The notes beneath the pieces are model-generated. The model ran no database searches and was not told the DNA's origin. It saw only the letters and a list, made by a program, of their open reading frames with translations. Below, in pieces: positions 276-17,892 of a stretch of 64,000 bases of DNA (position 1 is its first letter; every line of letters begins with the position of its first letter). The DNA comes from Squalus acanthias. Its lineage: Eukaryota. The position numbers were made by a program, and so were the translations under genes. The stretch is from positions 95,728,001-95,792,000 of the forward strand of contig CM059426.1 of assembly GCA_030390025.1 (NCBI GenBank). Reading direction: 5' to 3'.

Positions 276-1461
276 ACTCTACCTTTCTGTTTTTCCTACC
301 AAAGTGGATAACTTCACATTTATCCACGTTATACTGCATCTGCCATGTATTTGCCCACTCACTCAACTTGTCTAAATCGCCTTGAAACCTCTTTGCATCT
401 CCTCACAACTCACAATCCCACCTAGTTTCATGTCGTCAGCAAACTTGGAAATATTACATTTGGTTCCCTCATCCAAGTCATTGATATATATTGTGAATAG
501 CTGGGGCCCAAGCACTGATCCCTGCGGTACCCCACTAGTCACCACCTGCCATCCCGAAAAAGACCCATTTATTCCTACTCTCTGTTTCCTGCCTGTTAAC
601 CAATTTTCAATCCATGCCAGTATATTAACCCCAATCCCATGTGCTTTAATTTTGCACACTAACCTCATATGTGGGACTTTATCAAAGGCCTTCTGAAAAT
701 CCAAATGCACCACATCCACTGGTTCTCCCTTATCTATTCTACCAGTTGCATCCTCAAAAAACTCCAGTAGATTTGTCAAACATGATTTCCCTTTCATAAA
801 TCCAGGTTGACTTTGTCTAATCCCGTTGATATTTTCTAAGTGTGCTGTTATCACATCCTTTATAATAGACTCTAGCATTTTCCCTGCTACTGATGTTAGG
901 CTAACCGGTCTGTAGTTCCCTGTTTTCTCTCTCCCTCCTTTTTTAAATAGTGGGGCTATATTTGCCAACCTCCAACCTGCAGGAACTGTTCCATAATCTG
1001 TAGAATTTTGGATGACAACCAATGCATCCACTATTTTCATGGCTACCTCTTTTAGTACTCTGGGATGCAGATTATCAGGCCCTGGGGATTTATCGGCTTT
1101 CAGTCCCATTAATTTCTCCAGCATTATTTTTTTACTAATACTAATTTTCTTTAATTCCTCCTTCTCACTAGACCCTTGGTTCCCTAGCATTTCTGGGAAG
1201 TTATTTGTGTCCTCTTCCATGAAGACAGAACCAAAGTATTTGTTTAATTGCTCTGCCATTTCCTTGTTCCCGATTATAAATTCTCCCGTTTCTGACTGTA
1301 AGGGACCTACATTTGTCTTCACTAATCTTTTTCTTTTTACATACTTGTAGAAGCTTTTACAGTCCGCTTTTATGTTCCTTGCAAGTTTACTCTCATACTC
1401 TATTTTTCCCCTCTTAATCAATCTCTTGGTCCTTTTTTGCTGAACTCTAAACTGCTCCCAA
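276..1461 (-). mobile_element. CR1 LINE reverse transcriptase fragment
   Basis: ORF 372..1490 has [37 protein letters not shown] and FADD motifs. Confidence 0.95.
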
Positions 1462-2770
1462 TATCTACTTTGAATAAGTGGAATTAACACTGAGCAGGAC
1501 TTTTGCTCAAATCTTGGAAGATGCAGAGTTCAATGTCAATGTACTCTTTTACGTGCAGTTAGCACGCATAATCGCACACTTTCTGCTCGATCTTTATAGA
1601 AGTAATTTTATGACTTTGCACTCCCAGCAGGGAGCCTCGCCCATCAGCAAAGGGTATTGGAAATCCCGGTACGCAATCATGCTTCTGATGGGCGAAACTC
1701 CCTGCCAGAATTGCAGGGTCAGGAGATGAATCCTTATATGCCAGTATGAATTGTGTGGTCTACCTTCAGAGGGGGCTCGGCGAAGTCTTGCAGACAGCAT
1801 TTTCTAGGCCTCACTCTTATATTAGTCCTTAATGTTTATACTGCACTGCAATGTAATTTCTAACTTTCTTATTTGAAAGCTGTTGACCTAGATTACTTTT
1901 ATCATTATAGAGAGTCCAACATACATGGTGCACAAAGTGAGTTGACTTAAAGGATCCTCGAAGAAGAGCACATTCACTAAGCAGTTGCAGAAAATAGCAG
2001 ATGCTCTGAAAATAGTGGAAGTCAGTGTATCTGTGCAAACGGTATAACAATGTATGACCGTTGATAAGCCACTTGAATACTTACTCAATCTGTGTGGTTA
2101 CCTCTGAACAAGAGGATATTGATAGTATCTTTACTGTTCATGATGCAGGTGTACAAGTCAGGCGAGAAAGGAAAGGATGTGTGTGTAGAGTCTACAGCTG
2201 AACATGACTGGGACAGTGGTGAAGCGAGATCTGTTCTGGCTTCCACAGCTATTTCCATATTCCGCGCAGTGAAATAAATATAACTATTGACATAGCAACA
2301 GTGAGTCTGTGATGTAATTACATGATTAAATGTTTAATTTTTATAAATGGAAATTAAATTCATAATTTTAGAATGTTCTTATTATGTGCTTATTATTAAC
2401 ATTAATTGAACATTTGGAACAATATCAACAGTTGCAGTTAAAATATATACAGTAAGTTATATACAAAGTACAATGAATAATTAGACAAATATAGGGGTAC
2501 ATTTTGAACTTTAGCGCTCCTAGCGCACAGCTTCACACACTGGGAGTGCATGTTGGGAATTTGGGTATGTGCCCCCCAAATTTTCTGCCTATGATGGAAA
2601 GAAAATCACATCCAGCGAATGCCTGAATTTCCAATATGCTCTCTGCTGGGAGATCGAAAGAGGACAATTACCCAATGCATCTTTCAACACATGTGACACA
2701 CATAGATGCACACCTACAAACATAGTGGATAGATGCATATGTTTAATGATTAAGAAACATACATGATGGA

Positions 2771-2863
2771 GAGAGAAACAGAGTTAACGTTTCCGGTCGG
2801 TGACTCTCTGCACAGATGCTGGTTGACCTGCTGAGTATTTCCAGCATTTTCTGTTTTTAACCC
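2771..2863. mobile_element. Short Penelope-derived insertion, internally inverted (partial hammerhead arm plus tail arm)
   Basis: Left part is the reverse complement of the HHR 3' half seen at 52806-52842; right part is the forward tail; flanked by TGATGGA at 2764-2770 and 2864-2870. Confidence 0.7.
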
Positions 2864-3673
2864 TGATGGAAGTGTCAAGTGAGGTGAGCTCAGCTCCCTT
2901 GGTCACCCTCTTTCTGGGTTGAATAGCCAGCTGATGTCCACTGGCCAAATAGATGGAGAAAGGCCATTAAGGCAGGTATTGGGAGGCTACCAGCACCCAT
3001 GGAACTATCCCAACATGAGTCCCACCTTTAAGGAAAAGGGGATCAAGGAAAAGAAATCAGAGGGGGAAATAAAAATTTGACAAAAAATACAGGAGAAACA
3101 TTTAAAAGCATTGATTTTTTTCTGTTCATAGAGTTTGTAAGGCAGGACGTAGTAAAAACATAAACACAACCTTTGCTGAAAAAGTGGCAGAGATGGGTTA
3201 AATTGATTGTTAAGCAAAATGTGTTTCTTGCGGTTTCTCGAACCTGCTCAGCAGAAGCGCTAGCACCGTAGTAATTGGTACAATCGGAGCACACGTCAGA
3301 AGCGACTTATTAACCAACTTCCTGCCCAGAACAGCGCAGCAAGATTGAAACCTGAACTAAAAGCGGGTGGAGACGTGGTGAGGACTATACCACTTCACAA
3401 CAGGTGAAAACATTGTAGCAGAGGATTGCGACTGTCTCAACATCCAAGATAAACACTGAAGTTAAATAACAAGCCCAACCCAGTGGGAGTTTACACGCGC
3501 TTTCAGAAACACAATTGAAACCAAACTCTAATTTAACTGACAGGGCACGAATGGTTACTCCCTGAGAAGTGTCCAGGACTCTTTAAACAGCAGTGTGGCA
3601 TGTAATGGTAATGGAAATCTTGCGCTGATGTCTGATACATTTTAGTGCAAAAACAATTGGCTAAAATAAAAAC

Positions 3674-6995: not shown

Positions 6996-7618
6996 ATAGA
7001 ATCATAGAATGGTTACAGCACAGAAGGAGGCCATTTGGCCCATCGAGCTCGTGCCAGCTCTCTGCAAGACCACTTCAGCTAGCCCCACTCCCCCAGCCTT
7101 TCCCCGAAGCCCTGCAAATTTTTTTTCCTTTAGGTACTTATCCAATTCCCTTTTGCAAGCCATGATTGAATCTCCACCACTCTCTGAGGCAGTGCATTCC
7201 GGAACCTAACCGCTCACTGCATTAAAAAGTTTTTCTTCATGTCGTCTTTGGTTCCTCTGTCAATCACCTTAAATCTGTGTCCTCTGGTTCACAACCCTAC
7301 CGCCAATGGGAACAGTTTCTCTCTTATCTACTCTGTCTTGACCCCTCATGATTTTGAACACCACTATCAAATCTCCTCTCAACCTTCTCTGCTCTAAGGA
7401 GAACAACCCCAGCTTCTCCAGTCTATCCGCATAACTGAAATCCCTCATCCCTGGAACCATTCTTGTAAATCTTTTCTGCACCCTCTCTCAGGCCTTCACA
7501 TCCTTCCTAAAGTGCGGTGCCCAGAATTGGACATAATATTCCAGTTAAGGTCGGACCAATGTATATAAAGGTTCATCATAACTTCCTTGCTTTTGTACTC
7601 TATGCCTCTATTTATTAA
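6996..7618 (-). mobile_element. CR1 LINE 3' part (interrupted by the PLE insertion)
   Basis: QKRFTRMVPGMRDFSYADRLEKLGLFSLEQRRLRGDL; (catagaat) tail; sequence resumes at 11720. Confidence 0.9.
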
Positions 7619-7668
7619 ATTGAGAGGTCGCACAACACCAGGTTATAGTCCAACAGTTTTATTTGAAA

Positions 7669-7706
7669 TCACAAGCTTTCGGAACTATCGCTCCTTCCTC
7701 AGGTGA
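7669..7706 (-). ncRNA. Minimal type I hammerhead ribozyme in the PLE 3' region
   Basis: Minus strand reads UCAC-CUGAGGA-A-GGAG(CGAUAG)UUCC-GAA-AGCU-U-GUGA: helix I UCAC/GUGA, CUGANGA and GAAA boxes, palindromic AAGCUU in place of helix III; AAUAAA follows at 7663-7658. Confidence 0.85.
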
Positions 7707-8040
7707 AGTAAATTGGATACAGAATCGTCAGAGCATATATAGATGGAAAAAAAAGCATGTGTACTTTACAATTGCAGACCAATAAATTAAATCATCCTGA
7801 CTATCTGCCGAGGTGTGATAAAGTTAATTAAGTCAGCCAGGAAGGTACCACATCAAAAGGCATAGCAAGATACAACTGAGACAATGAGGTGAAGTCGCAG
7901 GGGTTCTAACGTGTCAAAAGCTGCCGTATGTATGTAAAACGAAAAGCTTTAAAAAAAAATTTACTTTTTTACTGGGAAAATTTTTACTTTTTTACTGGGA
8001 ATCACATCTGTGAACAAGCTAACGACGACTCGAGTCCGGA

Positions 8041-9555
8041 TCACGTCATGTATCGTGACATAAACCCAAGATCCCGATTGAGACCGTCTTCATGAGTGCA
8101 GAACTTGGCTATCAGTTTCTGCTCGATGATTTTGCGTTGTCGTGTGTTTCTAAGGTTGCCTTGGAGAACGCTTACCCGCAGATCCGAGGCTGAATGTCCT
8201 TGACTGCTGAAGTGTTCCCCGACTGGGAGGGAACAATCCTGCCTGGCGATTGTTGCGCGGTGCTCGTTCATACGTTGTCTCAGTGTCTGCATGGTCTCGC
8301 CGATGTACCATGCCGCGGTGCATTCTTTCCTGCAACGTATGAGGTAGACAACGTTGGCCGAGTCACATGAGTATGTACCATGTACCTGGTGGGTAGTGTC
8401 CTCACGTGTGATGGTGGTATCTGTGTTGATGATCTGGCATGTCTTGCAGAGTTTGCCATGGCAGGGTTGTGTGGTGTCGTGGTCGCTGTTATCCTGAAAG
8501 CTGGGTAATTTGCTGCGAACGATGGTACTTCTGAGGTTAGGCGGCTGTTTGAAGGCAAGTAGTGGAGGCGTGGGGATGGCCTTAGCGAGGTGTTTGTCGT
8601 CATCGATGACATGTTGAAGGCTGCGAAGAACATGTCGTAGTTTCTCCGCTCCGGGGAAGTACTGGACGACGTAGGGTACCCTGTTGGTTGTGTCCCGTGT
8701 TTGCCTTCTGAGGAGGTCTATGCGATTTTTCGCTGTGGCCCGTCGGAACTGTCGATCGATGAGTCGAGCGTCATATCCCGTTCTTACGAGGGCGTTTTTC
8801 AGCGTCCGTAGGTGTCCATCGCGTTCCTCCTCGTCTGAGCAGATCCTGTGTATTCGCAGGGCTTGTCCATAGGGGATGGCTTCTTTAACATGGTTAGGGT
8901 GGAAGCTGGAGAAGTGGAGCATCGTGAGGTTGTCCGTGGGCTTGCGGTAGAGTGAAGTGCTGAGGTGTCCGTCTTTGATGGAGATTCGTGTGTCCAGGAA
9001 TGAGACCGATTCTGAGGAGTAGTCCATGGTGAGTTTGATGGTGGGATGGAACTTGTTTATGTTATCGTGTAGTCTTTTCAGTGATCCTTCGCCATGGGTC
9101 CAAAGGAAGAAAATGTCGTCGATGTATCTGGTGTACAGCGTTGGCTGGAGGTCCTGTGCAGCGAAGAAGTCTTGCTCGAACTTGTGCATGAAGATGTTGG
9201 CGTATTGGGGTGCGAATTTGGTCCCCATGGCTGTTCCGTGTGTTTGGGTAAAAAAATGGTTGTCGAAGGTGAAGACATTGTGGTCAAGGATGAAGCGGAT
9301 GAGTTGTAGGATGGCGTCTGGAGATTGGCTGTTGTTGATGTTGAGTACTGAGGCTGTTGCAGCGATGCCGTCATCGTGGGGGATACTGGTGTAGAGTGCC
9401 GATACGTCCATCGTGGCAAGGAGTGTTCCTGGTTCAACTGGTCCGTGGGTGCTGAGTTTCTGTAAGAAGTCTGTAGTGTCGCGACAGAAGCTGGGGGTTC
9501 CCTGTACGATGGGTTTCAGAATGCCCTCGACGTATCCAGAGAGGTTCTCACACAG
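8041..9555 (-). CDS. PLE RT-GIY-YIG ORF, 5'-truncated (left arm)
   Basis: Open frame with MDVSALYTSIP, GTAMG, YIDDIF, CHGKLCKTC linker, VYLIRC...WYIGET, RMNEH, GLN; the annotated ORF's first ~30 aa are antisense of the other arm. Confidence 0.9.
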   Translation of the reverse strand: MCENLSGYVEGILKPIVQGTPSFCRDTTDFLQKLSTHGPVEPGTLLATMDVSALYTSIPHDDGIAATASVLNINNSQSPDAILQLIRFILDHNVFTFDNHFFTQTHGTAMGTKFAPQYANIFMHKFEQDFFAAQDLQPTLYTRYIDDIFFLWTHGEGSLKRLHDNINKFHPTIKLTMDYSSESVSFLDTRISIKDGHLSTSLYRKPTDNLTMLHFSSFHPNHVKEAIPYGQALRIHRICSDEEERDGHLRTLKNALVRTGYDARLIDRQFRRATAKNRIDLLRRQTRDTTNRVPYVVQYFPGAEKLRHVLRSLQHVIDDDKHLAKAIPTPPLLAFKQPPNLRSTIVRSKLPSFQDNSDHDTTQPCHGKLCKTCQIINTDTTITREDTTHQVHGTYSCDSANVVYLIRCRKECTAAWYIGETMQTLRQRMNEHRATIARQDCSLPVGEHFSSQGHSASDLRVSVLQGNLRNTRQRKIIEQKLIAKFCTHEDGLNRDLGFMSRYMT

Positions 9556-11578
9556 ACAGCAGACAGAGGGACTCGCAGTGCAGCAACCGAAGAAAAAAGA
9601 GTCAAACTGGACCCCTCCGGAGGGTCGCTGCCCCAAGCTTGACATGTATGCTCAAGCTGTCAGGAAATGCATCAACGCCAGATTCATCAGCCGCACTCAC
9701 AAGACAGTCCAGAATGTCACCCGAGCACAACGCAACGCCATCCACGCTCTCAAGACCAACCGCAACATTGTCATCAAACCAGCGGACAAAGGAGGAGCCA
9801 TCGTCATACAGAACAGAACGGACTATTGTAAAGAAGCATACCGACAACTGGACAACCAGGAACACTACAGACAGCTACCCGCAGATCCGACCAAAGAACA
9901 CACCCGCCAACTCAATAGACTGATCAAGACCTTCGATCCAGACCTTCAAAACATCCTACGCGCTCTCATCCCACGTACTCCCCGCGTGGGAGACTTCTAC
10001 TGCCTCCCAAAGATACACAAAGCCAACACACCCGGACGTCCTATCGTATCAGGCAATGGAACCCTGTGTGAGAACCTCTCTGGATACGTCGAGGGCATTC
10101 TGAAACCCATCGTACAGGGAACCCCCAGCTTCTGTCGCGACACTACAGACTTCTTACAGAAACTCAGCACCCACGGACCAGTTGAACCAGGAACACTCCT
10201 TGCCACGATGGACGTATCGGCACTCTACACCAGTATCCCCCACGATGACGGCATCGCTGCAACAGCCTCAGTACTCAACATCAACAACAGCCAATCTCCA
10301 GACGCCATCCTACAACTCATCCGCTTCATCCTTGACCACAATGTCTTCACCTTCGACAACCATTTTTTTACCCAAACACACGGAACAGCCATGGGGACCA
10401 AATTCGCACCCCAATACGCCAACATCTTCATGCACAAGTTCGAGCAAGACTTCTTCGCTGCACAGGACCTCCAGCCAACGCTGTACACCAGATACATCGA
10501 CGACATTTTCTTCCTTTGGACCCATGGCGAAGGATCACTGAAAAGACTACACGATAACATAAACAAGTTCCATCCCACCATCAAACTCACCATGGACTAC
10601 TCCTCAGAATCGGTCTCATTCCTGGACACACGAATCTCCATCAAAGACGGACACCTCAGCACTTCACTCTACCGCAAGCCCACGGACAACCTCACGATGC
10701 TCCACTTCTCCAGCTTCCACCCTAACCATGTTAAAGAAGCCATCCCCTATGGACAAGCCCTGCGAATACACAGGATCTGCTCAGACGAGGAGGAACGCGA
10801 TGGACACCTACGGACGCTGAAAAACGCCCTCGTAAGAACGGGATATGACGCTCGACTCATCGATCGACAGTTCCGATGGGCCACAGCGAAAAATCGCATA
10901 GACCTCCTCAGAAGGCAAACACGGGACACAACCAACAGGGTACCCTACGTCGTCCAGTACTTCCCCGGAGCGGAGAAACTACGACATGTTCTTCGCAGCC
11001 TTCAACATGTCATCGATGACGACAAACACCTCGCTAAGGCCATCCCCACGCCTCCACTACTTGCCTTCAAACAGCCGCCTAACCTCAGAAGTACCATCGT
11101 TCGCAGCAAATTACCCAGCTTTCAGGATAACAGCGACCACGACACCACACAACCCTGCCATGGCAAACTCTGCAAGACATGCCAGATCATCAACACAGAT
11201 ACCACCATCACACGTGAGGACACTACCCACCAGGTACATGGTACATACTCATGTGACTCGGCCAACGTTGTCTACCTCATACGTTGCAGGAAAGAATGCA
11301 CCGCGGCATGGTACATCGGCGAGACCATGCAGACACTGAGACAACGTATGAACGAGCACCGCGCAACAATCGCCAGGCAGGATTGTTCCCTCCCAGTCGG
11401 GGAACACTTCAGCAGTCAAGGACATTCAGCCTCGGATCTGCGGGTAAGCGTTCTCCAAGGCAACCTTAGAAACACACGACAACGCAAAATCATCGAGCAG
11501 AAACTGATAGCCAAGTTCTGCACTCATGAAGACGGTCTCAATCGGGATCTTGGGTTTATGTCACGATACATGACGTGA
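9556..11578 (+). CDS. PLE RT-GIY-YIG ORF, 5'-truncated but uninterrupted (right arm)
   Basis: SNWTPP, IKPADKGG, FYCLPKIHK, PGRPIVS, YIDD and GIY-YIG motifs; Cys-rich RT-EN linker is characteristic of Neptune-group PLEs. Confidence 0.93.
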
Positions 11579-11719
11579 TCCGGACTCGAGTCGTCGTTAG
11601 CTTGTTCACAGATGTGATTCCCAGTAAAAAAGTAAAAATTTTCCCAGTAAAAAAGTAAATTTTTTTTTAAAGCTTTTCGTTTTACATACATACGGCAGCT
11701 TTTGACACGTTAGAACCCC

Positions 11720-12776
11720 TTTATTAAGCCTAGGATCCCGTATGCTTCTTTAACCGCTTTCTCAACCTGCCCTGCCACCTTCAATGATTTGTGCACATAT
11801 ACCCCCAGGTCTCTTTGTTCATGCACCTCCTTTAGAATTGTACCCTTTAGTTTATATTGCCTCTCCTCGTTCTTCCTCACAAAATGTATCACTTCTGCGT
11901 TAAATTTCATCTGCCACGTGTCCGCCCATTCCACTAGCCTGTCTGTCCTCTTGAAGTTTATCACTATCCTCCTCACTGTTCACTATACTTCCAAGTTTTA
12001 TGTCATCTGCAAATTTTGAAATTGTGCCTTGTACACCCAAGCTCAAGTCATTAATGTATATCAAGAAAAACAGTGGATATAGTACCGACCCCTGGGGAAC
12101 ACCACTGTGTACCTTCCTCCAGTCCGAAAAACAACCATTCACCACTACTCTCTGTTTCCTGTCACTTATCCAATTTCGTATCCATGCTGCCACTGTCCCT
12201 TTTAATCCATGGGCTTCAACTTTGCTGGCAAGCCTATTATGTGGCACTTTATCAAATGCCTTTTGGAAATCCATGTACACCTCATCAACCGCATTGCCCT
12301 CATCAACCCTCTCTGTTACCTCATCAAAAAACTCAATCAGGTTAGTTAAACACGATTTGCCTTTAACAAATCTGTGCTGGCTTTCCTTAATTAATCCACA
12401 CTTGTCCAAGTGACTGTTAATTCTGTCCTGGATTATCATTTCTAAAAGCTTCCCCACTACTGAGGTTAAACTGACTGGCCTGCAGTTGCTGGGTTTATTG
12501 TTACAAGGGTGCAATATTTGTAATTCTCCAGTCCTCTGGCACCACCCCTCGTATCTAAGGAGGATTGGAAGATTATGGCCAGTACCTCCGCAATTTCCAC
12601 CTTTACTTCCTTCAGCATCCTAGGATGCATCCCATCAAGTCCTGGTGACTTATCTACTTTAAGAACAGCCAGCCTTTCTAGTACCTCCTCTTTATCAATT
12701 TTTATCCCATCCAGTATCTCAACTACCTCCTCTTTCACTATGACTTTGGCAGCATCCTCTTCCTTGGTAAAGACAG
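11720..12776 (-). mobile_element. CR1 LINE RT part (continuation of 6996-7618)
   Basis: ORFs 11900..12514 and 11710..11976 with [21 protein letters not shown]; frameshifted. Confidence 0.92.
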
Positions 12777-14887
12777 AATCGGCCCCTTGGGCCAGTTTTG
12801 GTGAAAAAATGGCGGCCGCCTTGCTTCTGCCCTCTTCTGGCATGGAACGCGATGGCCACCATTTTGGGCAGGTCGGCAGCACTGCCGTTGCCTGCGCTCG
12901 CTGCAAATATATAATTAGTCAGATCATGAAGTCAATCAGTGTGCAACGTTGAATTGACACACAACCTGGTATTTTGGACGTCGCCGCTCCTTTTAACACC
13001 CTCTCCAAAGCACTCGTTCAGCTGTACGACGGACTCCCCACCAGCGCTTCTTAAAGGCACACACGCACCTTTGAGGTAAGTTTAGACTTTAGCTTTTGTA
13101 CTGTTTTCTTTACATTTTATTTGAGTAGTGGCTTGGTGTAAGACATTTAAAAAGTTGTTAAAGTGTGAAGGGAGTGCAGGGAGTGCTGCTGGACATTTGC
13201 AAGGCTTTGGCTCTGAAAGGAAGGCTTCTGAGAAGACCACTTGCTCACAGTCCTGGGGGCTCTAGTTGCAGTCCCCCTTGGGCTGCAGCATGACATGGAG
13301 ATGGAGCAGAGGCAGCAAAGGGGACAAGCAACTCGCAGAGGGAGGAGGAGGAGGAAGAAGAAGAAGAAGGAGAAGAGAAAGAAGCAGAAGAGAAAGGAGC
13401 AGAGGAGAAGGAAGCAAAAGAGGAAGAAGCAGAAGAGGAGGAAGTGGAGGGGAGGAGGCAACCCAGACAGCCCCTTTCTGGCTGGGATATCGTGGATTGA
13501 ATCATCCGCCTGCAGTACCAGTGAACACAACCCCAATTCCCCTTTCAACATTTGTCCCACATCTTACCGTCCCTCTGTTACTGACTATCGCAGCATCCTC
13601 TTGGCCACGATGCTGAAATAAAAGCCACCACAAAGCAAACTTTCCAATCCAACTTTATCCATATATTTATCCAATATTACATCAAAAAATCAACTAATCA
13701 CCCTTACGCATTCCCTTAGAGAGTGTCTTGTGTGTGCCTTTGCCTATCCTAGTCCTATAACGTAGTGCTACCCCAGTGGTTGCAGCATGGCTGCTGACTT
13801 TCAGTGAGGGAGACTGCAGATGGCCTTGCAGGATGACATTGAGGAGCTGGTGGCTGGGAGTGTCAAATCAAGTGATGGTGTTTCTTCTTCTTCTTCTTCA
13901 CTCTCCTCTCCCTCTTCTTGGTCAACCACTGGCTAGGCAGGCTGGATTTCTTGCGTATTTGAAATGAGGAAGGCACAAGGGTAGGGTTGTGGTGAGGAAA
14001 GGGCGGGAAAGCAAGATGTGCATGCTTACACCATGTGCAGCTTGTAAATCAGAAGATATTGTGGAATGAGGGTGAAGTGAGATGTGAGAAGGAGCATAAC
14101 GTATGAGGACACCGGCATCAAGTATTCTTTCAGCCCTGCTGCTGGCCAAGGGCTCAGCCATGGCCCTGCCATGAATGGCCAGCACCATCTCCTCCAAGGG
14201 GGTGAGGTGAAGCTAGGAATGTGAGGTGTGCCTCATGTTTGGTACAGATTGTTGGTAGGTGGGGGAGTTGTGCATTGAGCAGTGTGTGAGGCTACAGGTG
14301 CAGTTGGTAGGAGATGGCTTTTGAAGATGCATTCACTGACCGTGACCACTTATCTGAGATCATGAAACTTCTTTGGGCACTGAAGCTAGGTCGTGGGGGC
14401 GACACTGCTGGCAGTGATCGACTCGGCGATCTGGTCCCACATCCTTCTTTCTGGAGGGCCTACTGGCCCCCTGTGGGTAGAGGACCTCTCTACCAGTGTT
14501 CACCTCTGCACAAAGGCCTCGAGTGCTACATCTGGGACCCTGGATGCCCATTCCCTGGACATTTGATCCCTTTGGGTTAGTGCTGAAGCAGTTTTTAAAA
14601 ATTTTCAGCACCAGAAGGCAGCTCACCTTTAAGAGGTGCAGACTGCATTTAAGAGGCGCAGGCTAGCTTTAAGTAACGCTAGCCTCAATCGAACATCGAG
14701 AACTTTGGCCCCCTGCTGAGTGCACAACCTGTCAGCAGCGCGTTCAGCGCTGGGCTGTGTGCTACAATCAGTATAATTAGCAGGCAGCACACATTGATGT
14801 GCTGCCTGAAGTCCTTTCAACGGGCGTGGGCATATCACGTATTGCGCTGCCCACGCCCATTTTTCTGCGTTATCAAATTTCACCCCC
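12777..14887. mobile_element. Degenerate PIF/Harbinger-derived element with Myb/SANT-like gene remnant
   Basis: Minus strand ~14563-14340 reads (with stops/frameshifts) DVALEAFV...REVLYP...WDQIAESITASS...QCPKKFHDL, then LTPLEEMVLAI near 14200; right end ...AAATTTCACCCC; GA-rich tract 13330-13460. Confidence 0.6.
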
Positions 14888-15850: not shown

Positions 15851-17731
15851 CACAAGACAGTCCAGAATGTCACCCGAGCACAACGCAACGCCATCCACGC
15901 ACTCAAGACCAACCGCAACATCGTCATCAAACCAGCGGACAAAGGAGGAGCCATCGTCATACAGAACGGAACGGACTATTGCAAAGAAGCATACCGACAA
16001 CTGGACAACCAGGAACACTACAGACAGCTACCCGCAGATCCGACCAAAGAACACACCCGCCAACTCAATAGACTGATCAAGACCTTCGATCCAGACCTTC
16101 AAAACATCCTACGCGCTCTCATCCCACGTACTCCCCGCGTAGGAGACTTTTACTGCCTCCCAAAGATACACAAAGCCAACACACCCGGACGTCCTATCGT
16201 ATCAGGCAACGGAACCCTGTGTGAGAACCTCTCTGGGTACGTCGAGGGCATCCTGAAACCCATCGTACAGGGAACCCCCAGCTTCTGTCGCGACACTACA
16301 GACTTCTTGCAGAAACTCAGCACCCATGGACCAGTTGAACCAGGAACACTCCTCGTCACAATGGACGTATCGGCACTCTACACCAATATCCCTCACAATG
16401 ACGGCATCGCTGCGACAGCCTCAGTACTCAACACCAACAACAGCCAATCTCCGGACGCCATCCTACAACTCATCCGCTTCATCCTTGACCACAATGTCTT
16501 CACCTTCGACAACCATTTTTTCACCCAAACACACGGAACAGCCATGGGGACCAAATTCGCACCCCAATACGCCAACATCTTCATGCACAAGTTCGAGCAA
16601 GACTTCTTCGCTGCACAGGACCTCCAACCAACGCTGTACACCAGATACATCGATGACATCTTCTTCCTTTGGACCCACGGCGAAGGATCACTGAAAGGAC
16701 TACACGATAGCATCAACAGGTTCCATCCCACCATCAAACTCACCATGGACTACTCCTCAGAATCGGTTTCATTCTTGGACACACGAATCTCCATCAAAGA
16801 CGGACGCCTCAGCACTTCACTCTACCGCAAGCCCACAGACAACCTCACGATGCTCCACTTCTCCAGCTTCCACCCTAACCACGTTAAAGAAGCCATCCCC
16901 TATGGACAAGCCCTGCGAATACACAGGATCTGCTCAGACGAGGAGGAACGCGATGGACACCTACGGACACTGAAAGACGCCCTCGTAAGAACGGGATATG
17001 ACGCTCGACTCGTCGATCGACAGTTCCGACGGGCCACAGCGAAAAACCGCATAGACCTCCTCAGAAGACGAACACGGGACACAACCAACAGAGTACCCTA
17101 CCTCGTCCAGTACTTCCCCGGAGCGGAAAAACTACGCCATGTTCTTCGCAGCCTTCAACATGTCATCGATGACGACGAACACCTTGCTAAGGCCATCCCC
17201 ACGCCTCCACTACTCGCCTTCAAGCAGCCGCCTAACCTCAAAAGTACCATCGTTCGCAGCAGATTACCCATCTTTCAGGAGAACAGCAACCAAGACACCA
17301 CACAACCCTGCCACGGCAACCTCTGCAAGACATGCCAAATCATGGACACAGATACCATCATTACACGTGAGGACACTACCCACCAGGTACACGGTACATA
17401 CTCATGTGACTCGGCCAACGTTGTCTACCTGATACATTGCAGTAAAGGATGCTCCAGAGCATGGTACATCGGCGAGACCATGCAGACACTGAGACAACGT
17501 ATGAACGGACACCGCGCACCAATCGCCAGGCAGGAGGGTTGCCTCCCAGTCGGGGAACACTTCAGCAGCCAGGGGCATTCAGCCTCGGATCTGCGGGTAA
17601 GCGTTCTCCAAGGCGGCCTTCGAGATACACGACAGCGCAAAATCATAGAGCAGAAACTGATAGCCAAGTTCCGCACTCATGAGGATGGCCTCAATCGCGA
17701 TATCGGGTTCATGTCACGATACAGAACGTGA
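15851..17731 (+). CDS. PLE RT-GIY-YIG ORF, 5'-truncated
   Basis: ORF 16307..17731 (474 aa) with YIDD, CHGNLCKTC, VYLIHC...WYIGET; upstream sequence from 15851 is collinear with the first copy. Confidence 0.88.
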   Translation, partial: HKTVQNVTRAQRNAIHALKTNRNIVIKPADKGGAIVIQNGTDYCKEAYRQLDNQEHYRQLPADPTKEHTRQLNRLIKTFDPDLQNILRALIPRTPRVGDFYCLPKIHKANTPGRPIVSGNGTLCENLSGYVEGILKPIVQGTPSFCRDTTDFLQKLSTHGPVEPGTLLVTMDVSALYTNIPHNDGIAATASVLNTNNSQSPDAILQLIRFILDHNVFTFDNHFFTQTHGTAMGTKFAPQYANIFMHKFEQDFFAAQDLQPTLYTRYIDDIFFLWTHGEGSLKGLHDSINRFHPTIKLTMDYSSESVSFLDTRISIKDGRLSTSLYRKPTDNLTMLHFSSFHPNHVKEAIPYGQALRIHRICSDEEERDGHLRTLKDALVRTGYDARLVDRQFRRATAKNRIDLLRRRTRDTTNRVPYLVQYFPGAEKLRHVLRSLQHVIDDDEHLAKAIPTPPLLAFKQPPNLKSTIVRSRLPIFQENSNQDTTQPCHGNLCKTCQIMDTDTIITREDTTHQVHGTYSCDSANVVYLIHCSKGCSRAWYIGETMQTLRQRMNGHRAPIARQEGCLPVGEHFSSQGHSASDLRVSVLQGGLRDTRQRKIIEQKLIAKFRTHEDGLNRDIGFMSRYRT

Positions 17732-17892
17732 CTTGACATCATGGCCGGTCTTCCCAGGTGTTTTTTTTTTAAAAGTCTAACACAAGAACACAAATTGACA
17801 GGATATGCAGCCAGCAGGTGGTTTGACACGTTGGACCCCCTGGGACACATCTCATTGTCTTGGCTATGCTCTTTGTTGTAGGGAATAATGTG
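15851..17892 (+). mobile_element. Second Neptune-type PLE copy, truncated at both ends
   Basis: 10-bp TSD TAATTTTTAA (15841-15850, 17893-17902); closely similar to 9698-11578; 3' UTR retains the tttgacacgtt...ctcattgtct block but no HHR. Confidence 0.92.

Follow-up and report, generated by a model that had tools for sequence, protein, structure and literature searches.

Head-to-head insertions, a palindromic target and one-sided tails in a young Penelope-like retrotransposon family of Squalus acanthias

The window, i.e., the whole 64,000-nt stretch of Squalus acanthias DNA analysed here, contains an insertion that belongs to a young family of Penelope-like retrotransposons and has the head-to-head form usual for it. 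Probably each strand of a 12-bp staggered cut primed reverse transcription, both with one RNA source as template, and the two cDNAs were then joined. The head-to-head form is the norm of the family and already in print for Penelope-like elements, and the insertion itself is ordinary. Of more value are the rules that the family follows, namely a symmetric 12-bp cut, one tail per insertion and arms from the same source, which exclude fold-back for staggered copies. Penelope elements are the closest mobile relatives of telomerase.

The insertion in the window and its element family

Self-alignment resolves the insertion into two outward-pointing, 5'-truncated Penelope arms, joined head-to-head and enclosed as a whole by one 8-bp duplication (TTTATTAA at 7611-7618 and again at 11720-11727). 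The left arm (7619..9555, minus strand) covers unit positions 1202-3138, with the frame stop at 8041, and ends at the commonest tail-less terminus of the family. The right arm (9556..11719, plus strand) covers unit positions 694-2858, carries the 5'-truncated RT-GIY-YIG frame to 11578 and lacks the last 280 nt of the unit and the tail of about 40 nt. The arms meet at 9555..9556 with an exact overlap of 0 nt. They share 1,657 nt (7899-9555, minus, against 10064-11720, plus), the shared stretches being spaced by 508 nt, and neither arm is contained within the other. The only mismatch, at 8742/10877, is a CpG-type C>T change replacing Arg by Trp in the frame of the right arm; near-identity with this single difference had been part of the original prediction and was reproduced by the self-alignment.

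The insertion lies in an old LINE on the minus strand, which we take to be CR1, with its 3' part at 7000..7618 (75% to other window copies) and its RT-coding part at 11728..12777 (Pfam RVT_1 E=1.8e-24 for 11900-12619). Aligned to another CR1 copy of the window, the flanks are collinear, the left one reaching to 38261 and the right one starting from 38268 with an 8-bp overlap, and one CR1 was therefore cleanly split. The earlier description of outward-facing truncated arms within an 8-bp duplication splitting one CR1 was thus confirmed, and with one duplication and collinear flanks the claim of a single insertion holds as well. The left half-site with TG at -4/-3 and the full 12-bp target core (7607-7618) are found at 7603..7618 (plus strand), the last eight bases (7611-7618) being those duplicated; on the other side, 8 of the 12 bases (11720-11727) are followed by the right half-site GCCT (11720..11731, plus strand).

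A minimal hammerhead ribozyme is predicted at 7669..7708 (minus strand) from the letters of the left arm, with a CTGAGGA core at 7702-7696, GAAA and a palindromic helix III (AGCT), following the features given in passages of PMC4209133. An Rfam scan of 7000-12400 returned nothing relevant, hammerhead included, with a lone chance match at E=4.7, and the region from the hammerhead to the ATG folded no better than shuffled sequences (z=0.1). The left arm had been proposed to run to the true 3' end with hammerhead and AATAAA. Both motifs are present; the AATAAA is located at unit 3094, before the next ATG, and is not followed by poly(A). The end, however, is not the 3' end of the transcript, because natural tandems continue past 3138 into a following unit, with the ATG of the latter 38 nt beyond this point. 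The left end, i.e., the normal tail-less terminus at unit 3138, is a priming site and not a poly(A) end.

From the natural tandems a 3,138-bp unit was obtained, containing an intact RT-GIY-YIG frame of 893 aa. Pfam recognizes RVT_1 (E=9e-9) and returned no match for the GIY-YIG nuclease of the query protein itself; a VVY...YIG core is visible in the translation, and PF01541 is found in many homologues. The segment VVYLIRCRKECTAAWYIG has two cysteines between GIY and YIG, corresponding to the CCHH motif as defined in a passage of PMC8557442. As in EN+ Penelope-like elements, a single ORF encodes the RT followed by a C-terminal GIY-YIG nuclease, the predicted ribozyme, judged by its core letters, is placed in a pseudo-LTR, and the family shows tandem or partial-tandem units, an inverted 5'-truncated copy and a one-sided tail of 30-40 nt, the last of which the window copy itself lacks. 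The RT-EN linker carries a C-x4-C-x2-C Zn-finger (11156..11182, plus strand, read in translation) of the CX2-5CxxC form that a passage of PMC8557442 gives for Neptune and that is common to Nematis. The Neptune bias toward microsatellite targets, a tendency and not a strict criterion, is not seen here, the targets being TG-NN-[12]-NN-CA sites, many of them in LINE copies. Judged by motifs, the family is a Penelope-like element with Neptune/Nematis-type marks, the Neptune type having been proposed originally.

Among named proteins the closest are from sharks, with at most 92% identity if proteins fused to a host part are set aside. P0015, a shark protein with the annotation epsin-2 isoform, includes a 94%-identical piece of the element frame, which may be a gene-model artefact or an exonisation. 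Variation among copies amounts to 0.06% of 146,458 bases when counted from the column majority; because of this low variation and the intact 893-aa frames the sequences speak for recent activity, in line with the original prediction. Multi-unit head-to-head arrays with several intact 893-aa frames at L048 (G000:C7:138546600-138556500), L055 and L058 are candidate source loci.

For the locus 24 sequencing runs were listed, none with more than 0.60 of words in common. A read check with four runs over 9556-12600, i.e., the right arm and the flank next to it, gave short multi-copy contigs, which neither span the junction nor show an empty site. One run of a related organism covers the LINE flank and leaves the Penelope arm almost uncovered, while the three other runs cover both; possibly this reflects a patchy distribution among relatives, although such contigs cannot show absence.

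Target, tails and arms across the genome

A search of the genome with the element returned 40 scored near-identical matches, several of them in outward-facing pairs. A 37-nt probe from just inside the right arm end gave 156 exact matches and a 41-nt probe across the tailed end gave 8,464, related subfamilies included. The loci of the 40 matches and others listed among the first 100 of the 156 probe matches form a first set of 80 insertions; the held-out set consists of the first 60 tailed sites of contig 1, for which four predictions were written beforehand. L048 (array beyond both ends) and L106 (no segment of at least 97%) were left out of the first set and L176, L185 and L205 out of the held-out breakpoint test, and L001-L030, L063-L094 and L142-L145 do not enter the insertion counts. 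The reference for held-out breakpoints was a related subfamily, and their positions can err by a few bases.

This survey of genomic copies for head-to-head junctions, proposed earlier as a check, found 39 head-to-head and 41 single insertions in the first set, so that the window copy cannot be regarded as exceptional. Its arm overlap ranks fifth of 39, four insertions having a longer one, and overlaps exceed 1 kb in 9 of 39; the idea that read-through yields double-stranded RNA as a source of small RNAs would, if true, apply equally to other loci. The 3' ends of the first set fall into two classes, either at unit 3138 or 26-48 nt further, ending about at the ATG of the next unit, and poly(A) tails were absent from the examined copy ends. 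Exactly one tail is present in 36 of the 39 head-to-head insertions, two in none and no tail in three, a pattern hardly compatible with independent choice of ends (P=2e-8). Likewise, 47 of the 60 held-out sites are head-to-head and none of these 47 has a second tail. The tail-less exceptions are the window copy, L098 and L122, the last of which, with its duplication intact and neither end tailed, breaks the one-tail rule.

Insertions target a palindrome, TG-NN-[12 bp]-NN-CA, and duplicate its 12-bp core. The longest flanking repeat, microhomology included, measures 12-14 bp in 37/39 head-to-head insertions compared with 20/41 singles, and at least 12 bp in 39/47 held-out head-to-head sites. 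Across the 30 unambiguous 12-bp cases T is found at -4 in 27, G at -3 in 30, C at +3 in 28 and A at +4 in 24, and across 20 distinct site classes the respective counts are 18, 20, 19 and 18; shifting the register by 1-3 bases abolishes the signal. Held-out unambiguous 12-bp cases show G-3 in 16/17 and C+3 in 15/17, and held-out repeats of at least 12 bp have both in some register in 37/39, against a background of 5% per register; the repeat calls are doubtful at L225 and L235, and two long repeats were missed by the parser (L176, L205). C is present at -7 in 22/30, and the half-site is often C-N-N-T-G. The window site belongs to the commonest target class, which holds 18 of 66 other contexts, 8 in one orientation and 10 in the other. 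The idea that CR1 is targeted specifically was rejected in favour of motif and abundance, as a single 26-nt pattern of this commonest site has 3,970 matches that carry no insertion.

In the first set the tail is located on the arm reaching less far 5' in 22 of 35 pairs, which is not significant alone (P=0.18). In these 22 tailed pairs, as in the window, each arm holds sequence absent from its partner, and because of this neither arm was copied from the other in staggered pairs. In the other 13 pairs the tail is on the longer arm, for which a strict leader-follower model needs later trimming. If tail-less singles are counted, the 5'-shorter arm is tailed in 57/76; the held-out ratio of 29 to 13 was disregarded, as these sites had been selected by their tail and the ratio is therefore biased. 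Direct junctions show microhomology of at least 2 nt (2-5 nt) in 20/32 compared with 17% expected. At their far junction, three tail-less singles, 3 of the 7 with extra bases, have 6-9 nt derived from the end of the tail.

Rare variants are common to both arms in L060, L062, L107, L111, L121 and L130 and run-length changes in L103, L115 and L131. Such sharing is far above that of random copies; an exception is the recurrent CpG change at unit 2015, which is seen in the window. The original prediction had treated two RNAs as an equal option, but with rare variants shared between arms two independent RNAs are not as likely as one source. In held-out pairs the partner arm is the nearest or tied in 34/40, 6 of the 46 aligned pairs having been left out as too short or with too few comparators. 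Against a one-RNA model, the arms are discordant within the overlap at a homopolymer run in L062 and L031.

The 5' stops of the two arms lie within 20 nt in 6/36 first-set pairs (1.0 expected) and within 5 nt in 11/44 held-out pairs (3.1 expected). Arm lengths correlate with rho 0.84 in the held-out set, which subfamily structure may inflate, and with rho 0.21 in the first set (P=0.23). Many held-out stops form a cluster (unit 3044-3058) about 30 nt downstream of a TATATAT box (7735..7741, minus strand, in the window), with both arms stopping there in 10 pairs, one only in 3 and 3, and neither in 28; the complete insertion L185 starts at this cluster too. Box and cluster are likely to be promoter and start site, and the stops would accordingly represent run-off at the transcript start. 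In three held-out pairs, however, only the tailed arm ends at the likely start site, which speaks against one RNA. At or beside the predicted hammerhead cut (unit 3084/3085) 5' stops are seen in L219, L202, L209 and L201, in L219 for both arms, and may derive from ribozyme-cut template; an enrichment of stops at this cut was rejected as too weak, with five at unit 3082-3087.

Proposed priming from both strands and competing explanations

In the proposed mechanism a two-fold symmetric complex would nick both strands 12 bp apart, leaving 12-nt 3' overhangs; this complex is probably dimeric, judging from the symmetry of the target and from PMC11167929. Each 3' end would then prime a cDNA on the same transcript: one RT would begin at unit 3138, and a second, beginning where the tail ends, would displace the first cDNA. 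Both cDNAs would have a common RNA source, most simply one molecule, and their 3' ends would anneal by microhomology, each serving as template for the second strand of the other. If the second cDNA failed, a single arm would result, often with a shortened duplication and sometimes with a tail remnant of 6-9 nt. The more specific version, in which a dimer reads TG-NN-[12]-NN-CA and makes its cuts at a distance of 12 bp, and a single RNA molecule is copied by both 3' ends from two fixed sites 40 nt apart, has about an even chance of being correct. If true, one rule would cover inverted arms, one-sided tails, palindromic junctions and short inverted copies stopping at the start site, and the Penelope nuclease would be sequence-directed, with integration resembling that of a symmetric homing nuclease that carries two RTs.

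A closely related explanation is that both strands prime on separate RNAs, or on separate units of a multimeric RNA, from one source locus. Multimeric templates are indeed used, as arms longer than one unit are found in L055, L058, L121, L040 and L059; one source locus would account for the shared variants, and no strand displacement would be needed. By itself, however, this explanation forces neither one tail per insertion (36/39, and no double tail in 47) nor matching 5' stop points, and we consider it rather unlikely. The shared variants could also be due to gene conversion, one arm having converted the other, or to a single locus having supplied two transcripts.

Self-priming, in which one cDNA, or an antisense template as argued in section 11 of PMC3846280, folds back and copies itself, would produce identical arms with shared variants, and the near-perfect, near-symmetric palindromic junctions of L180, L203, L217 and L219 fit such an origin. 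The copied arm must then lie inside the first, which is untrue of the window copy and of the 22/35 tailed pairs, and both ends are at fixed termini against an intact 12-bp duplication. Because neither of its arms is contained in the other, the window copy cannot be made by fold-back, which is excluded for staggered pairs on a sense template; for the insertions overall we regard it as improbable. Even less probable is that the window structure is an assembly artefact or represents two independent insertions. Long inverted repeats are hard to assemble and the contigs from the four runs over 9556-12600 do not span the junction, but the single duplication, the collinearity of the CR1 flanks, the stagger of the arms and their only mismatch argue against it, as do 38 other loci of the same build, each with its own duplication. 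Priming from both target strands with joining of cDNAs, as the original prediction had suggested, is thus the supported reading, neither arm being contained in the other.

Known systems and the right end of the window copy

In LINE-1 twin priming both target strands prime, the cDNAs join by microhomology and one target-site duplication encloses the inversion, much as proposed here. Twin priming copies non-overlapping parts of one polyadenylated RNA, whereas both arms of this family copy the same part from fixed non-poly(A) sites, the window arms overlapping by 1,657 bp and the examined ends having no poly(A). I-TevI leaves a 2-nt overhang. I-TevI-type homing nucleases belong to the same GIY-YIG superfamily, and the half-site C-N-N-T-G resembles their CNNNG cleavage motif, a resemblance to be taken as a lead only; in the source passages the I-TevI nuclease domain is described as monomeric, while the present family has a doubled site and a stagger of 12 bp.

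The EN+ Neptune-type elements in passages of PMC8557442 and PMC3846280 are alike in the order of RT and GIY-YIG with CCHH, the linker Zn-finger, tandem units, an inverted 5'-truncated copy, a 30-40-nt tail at one end and a target-site duplication. Inverted pLTR, tail and duplication are called typical in PMC3846280, with head-to-head as the most frequent inverted arrangement, and the same arrangement is shown in figure 2 of PMC8557442. Those elements differ in AT-rich or microsatellite targets and duplication examples of 8-10 bp, and the passages contain no palindromic target with a fixed 12-bp stagger. Inversion is ascribed there to self-priming and the tail to nuclease resolution.

For the Poseidon element PAc of Anolis carolinensis, PMC11167929 reports that the protein cuts and extends both strands in vitro and is predicted to dimerize, in analogy to the mechanism proposed here. 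RT starts at two adjacent internal RNA sites defining the tail, with a hammerhead upstream, as is proposed for this family. In contrast, Poseidon has no linker Zn-finger, its RT start sites are located within the ORF at 111-118 nt, compared with sites immediately before and at the ATG in the present family, and the cut preference is ATT (here TG-NN-[12]-NN-CA). In the parts of its main text consulted, the two start sites are not linked to the two arms of an inverted insertion.

The origin of inverted arms and one-sided tail is called undefined in a passage of PMC8557442 and left open in PMC11167929. Dual priming on one RNA, which is likely, would explain these long-unexplained features. No report of a palindromic target or of dual priming for Penelope elements was found in the literature searched, older reviews and Repbase reports being outside its scope. 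With this family, a protein, an RNA and a target are defined on which the mechanism can be tested directly, and its intact, nearly identical copies are usable for biochemistry.

At the right end the window copy departs from the family, stopping at unit 2858 with 8 of the 12 target bases duplicated and the missing four on the right side. The tail expected at this end is missing, as are 280 nt and 4 target bases, through mis-priming from a trimmed overhang or through a deletion of about 320 bp, which are about equally likely. Internal priming of the right arm, as claimed originally, does occur elsewhere in the family (L041, L057), but a deletion fits as well, because four of the usual 12 duplicated bases are missing there. 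L041, L057 and the copy at 15851-17892 keep the whole primed overhang, unlike the window right end.

The copy at 15851-17892 (plus strand) is a single arm from a sister subfamily, 95% identical. It ends about 145 nt before the usual end of its family, against a full 12-bp core (10 bp duplicated) in a perfect TG..CA site, and is a clean case of internal priming. L098, a head-to-head insertion with an overlap of about 1.65 kb, has lost both ends and most of the target core, and long inverted arms may be unstable.
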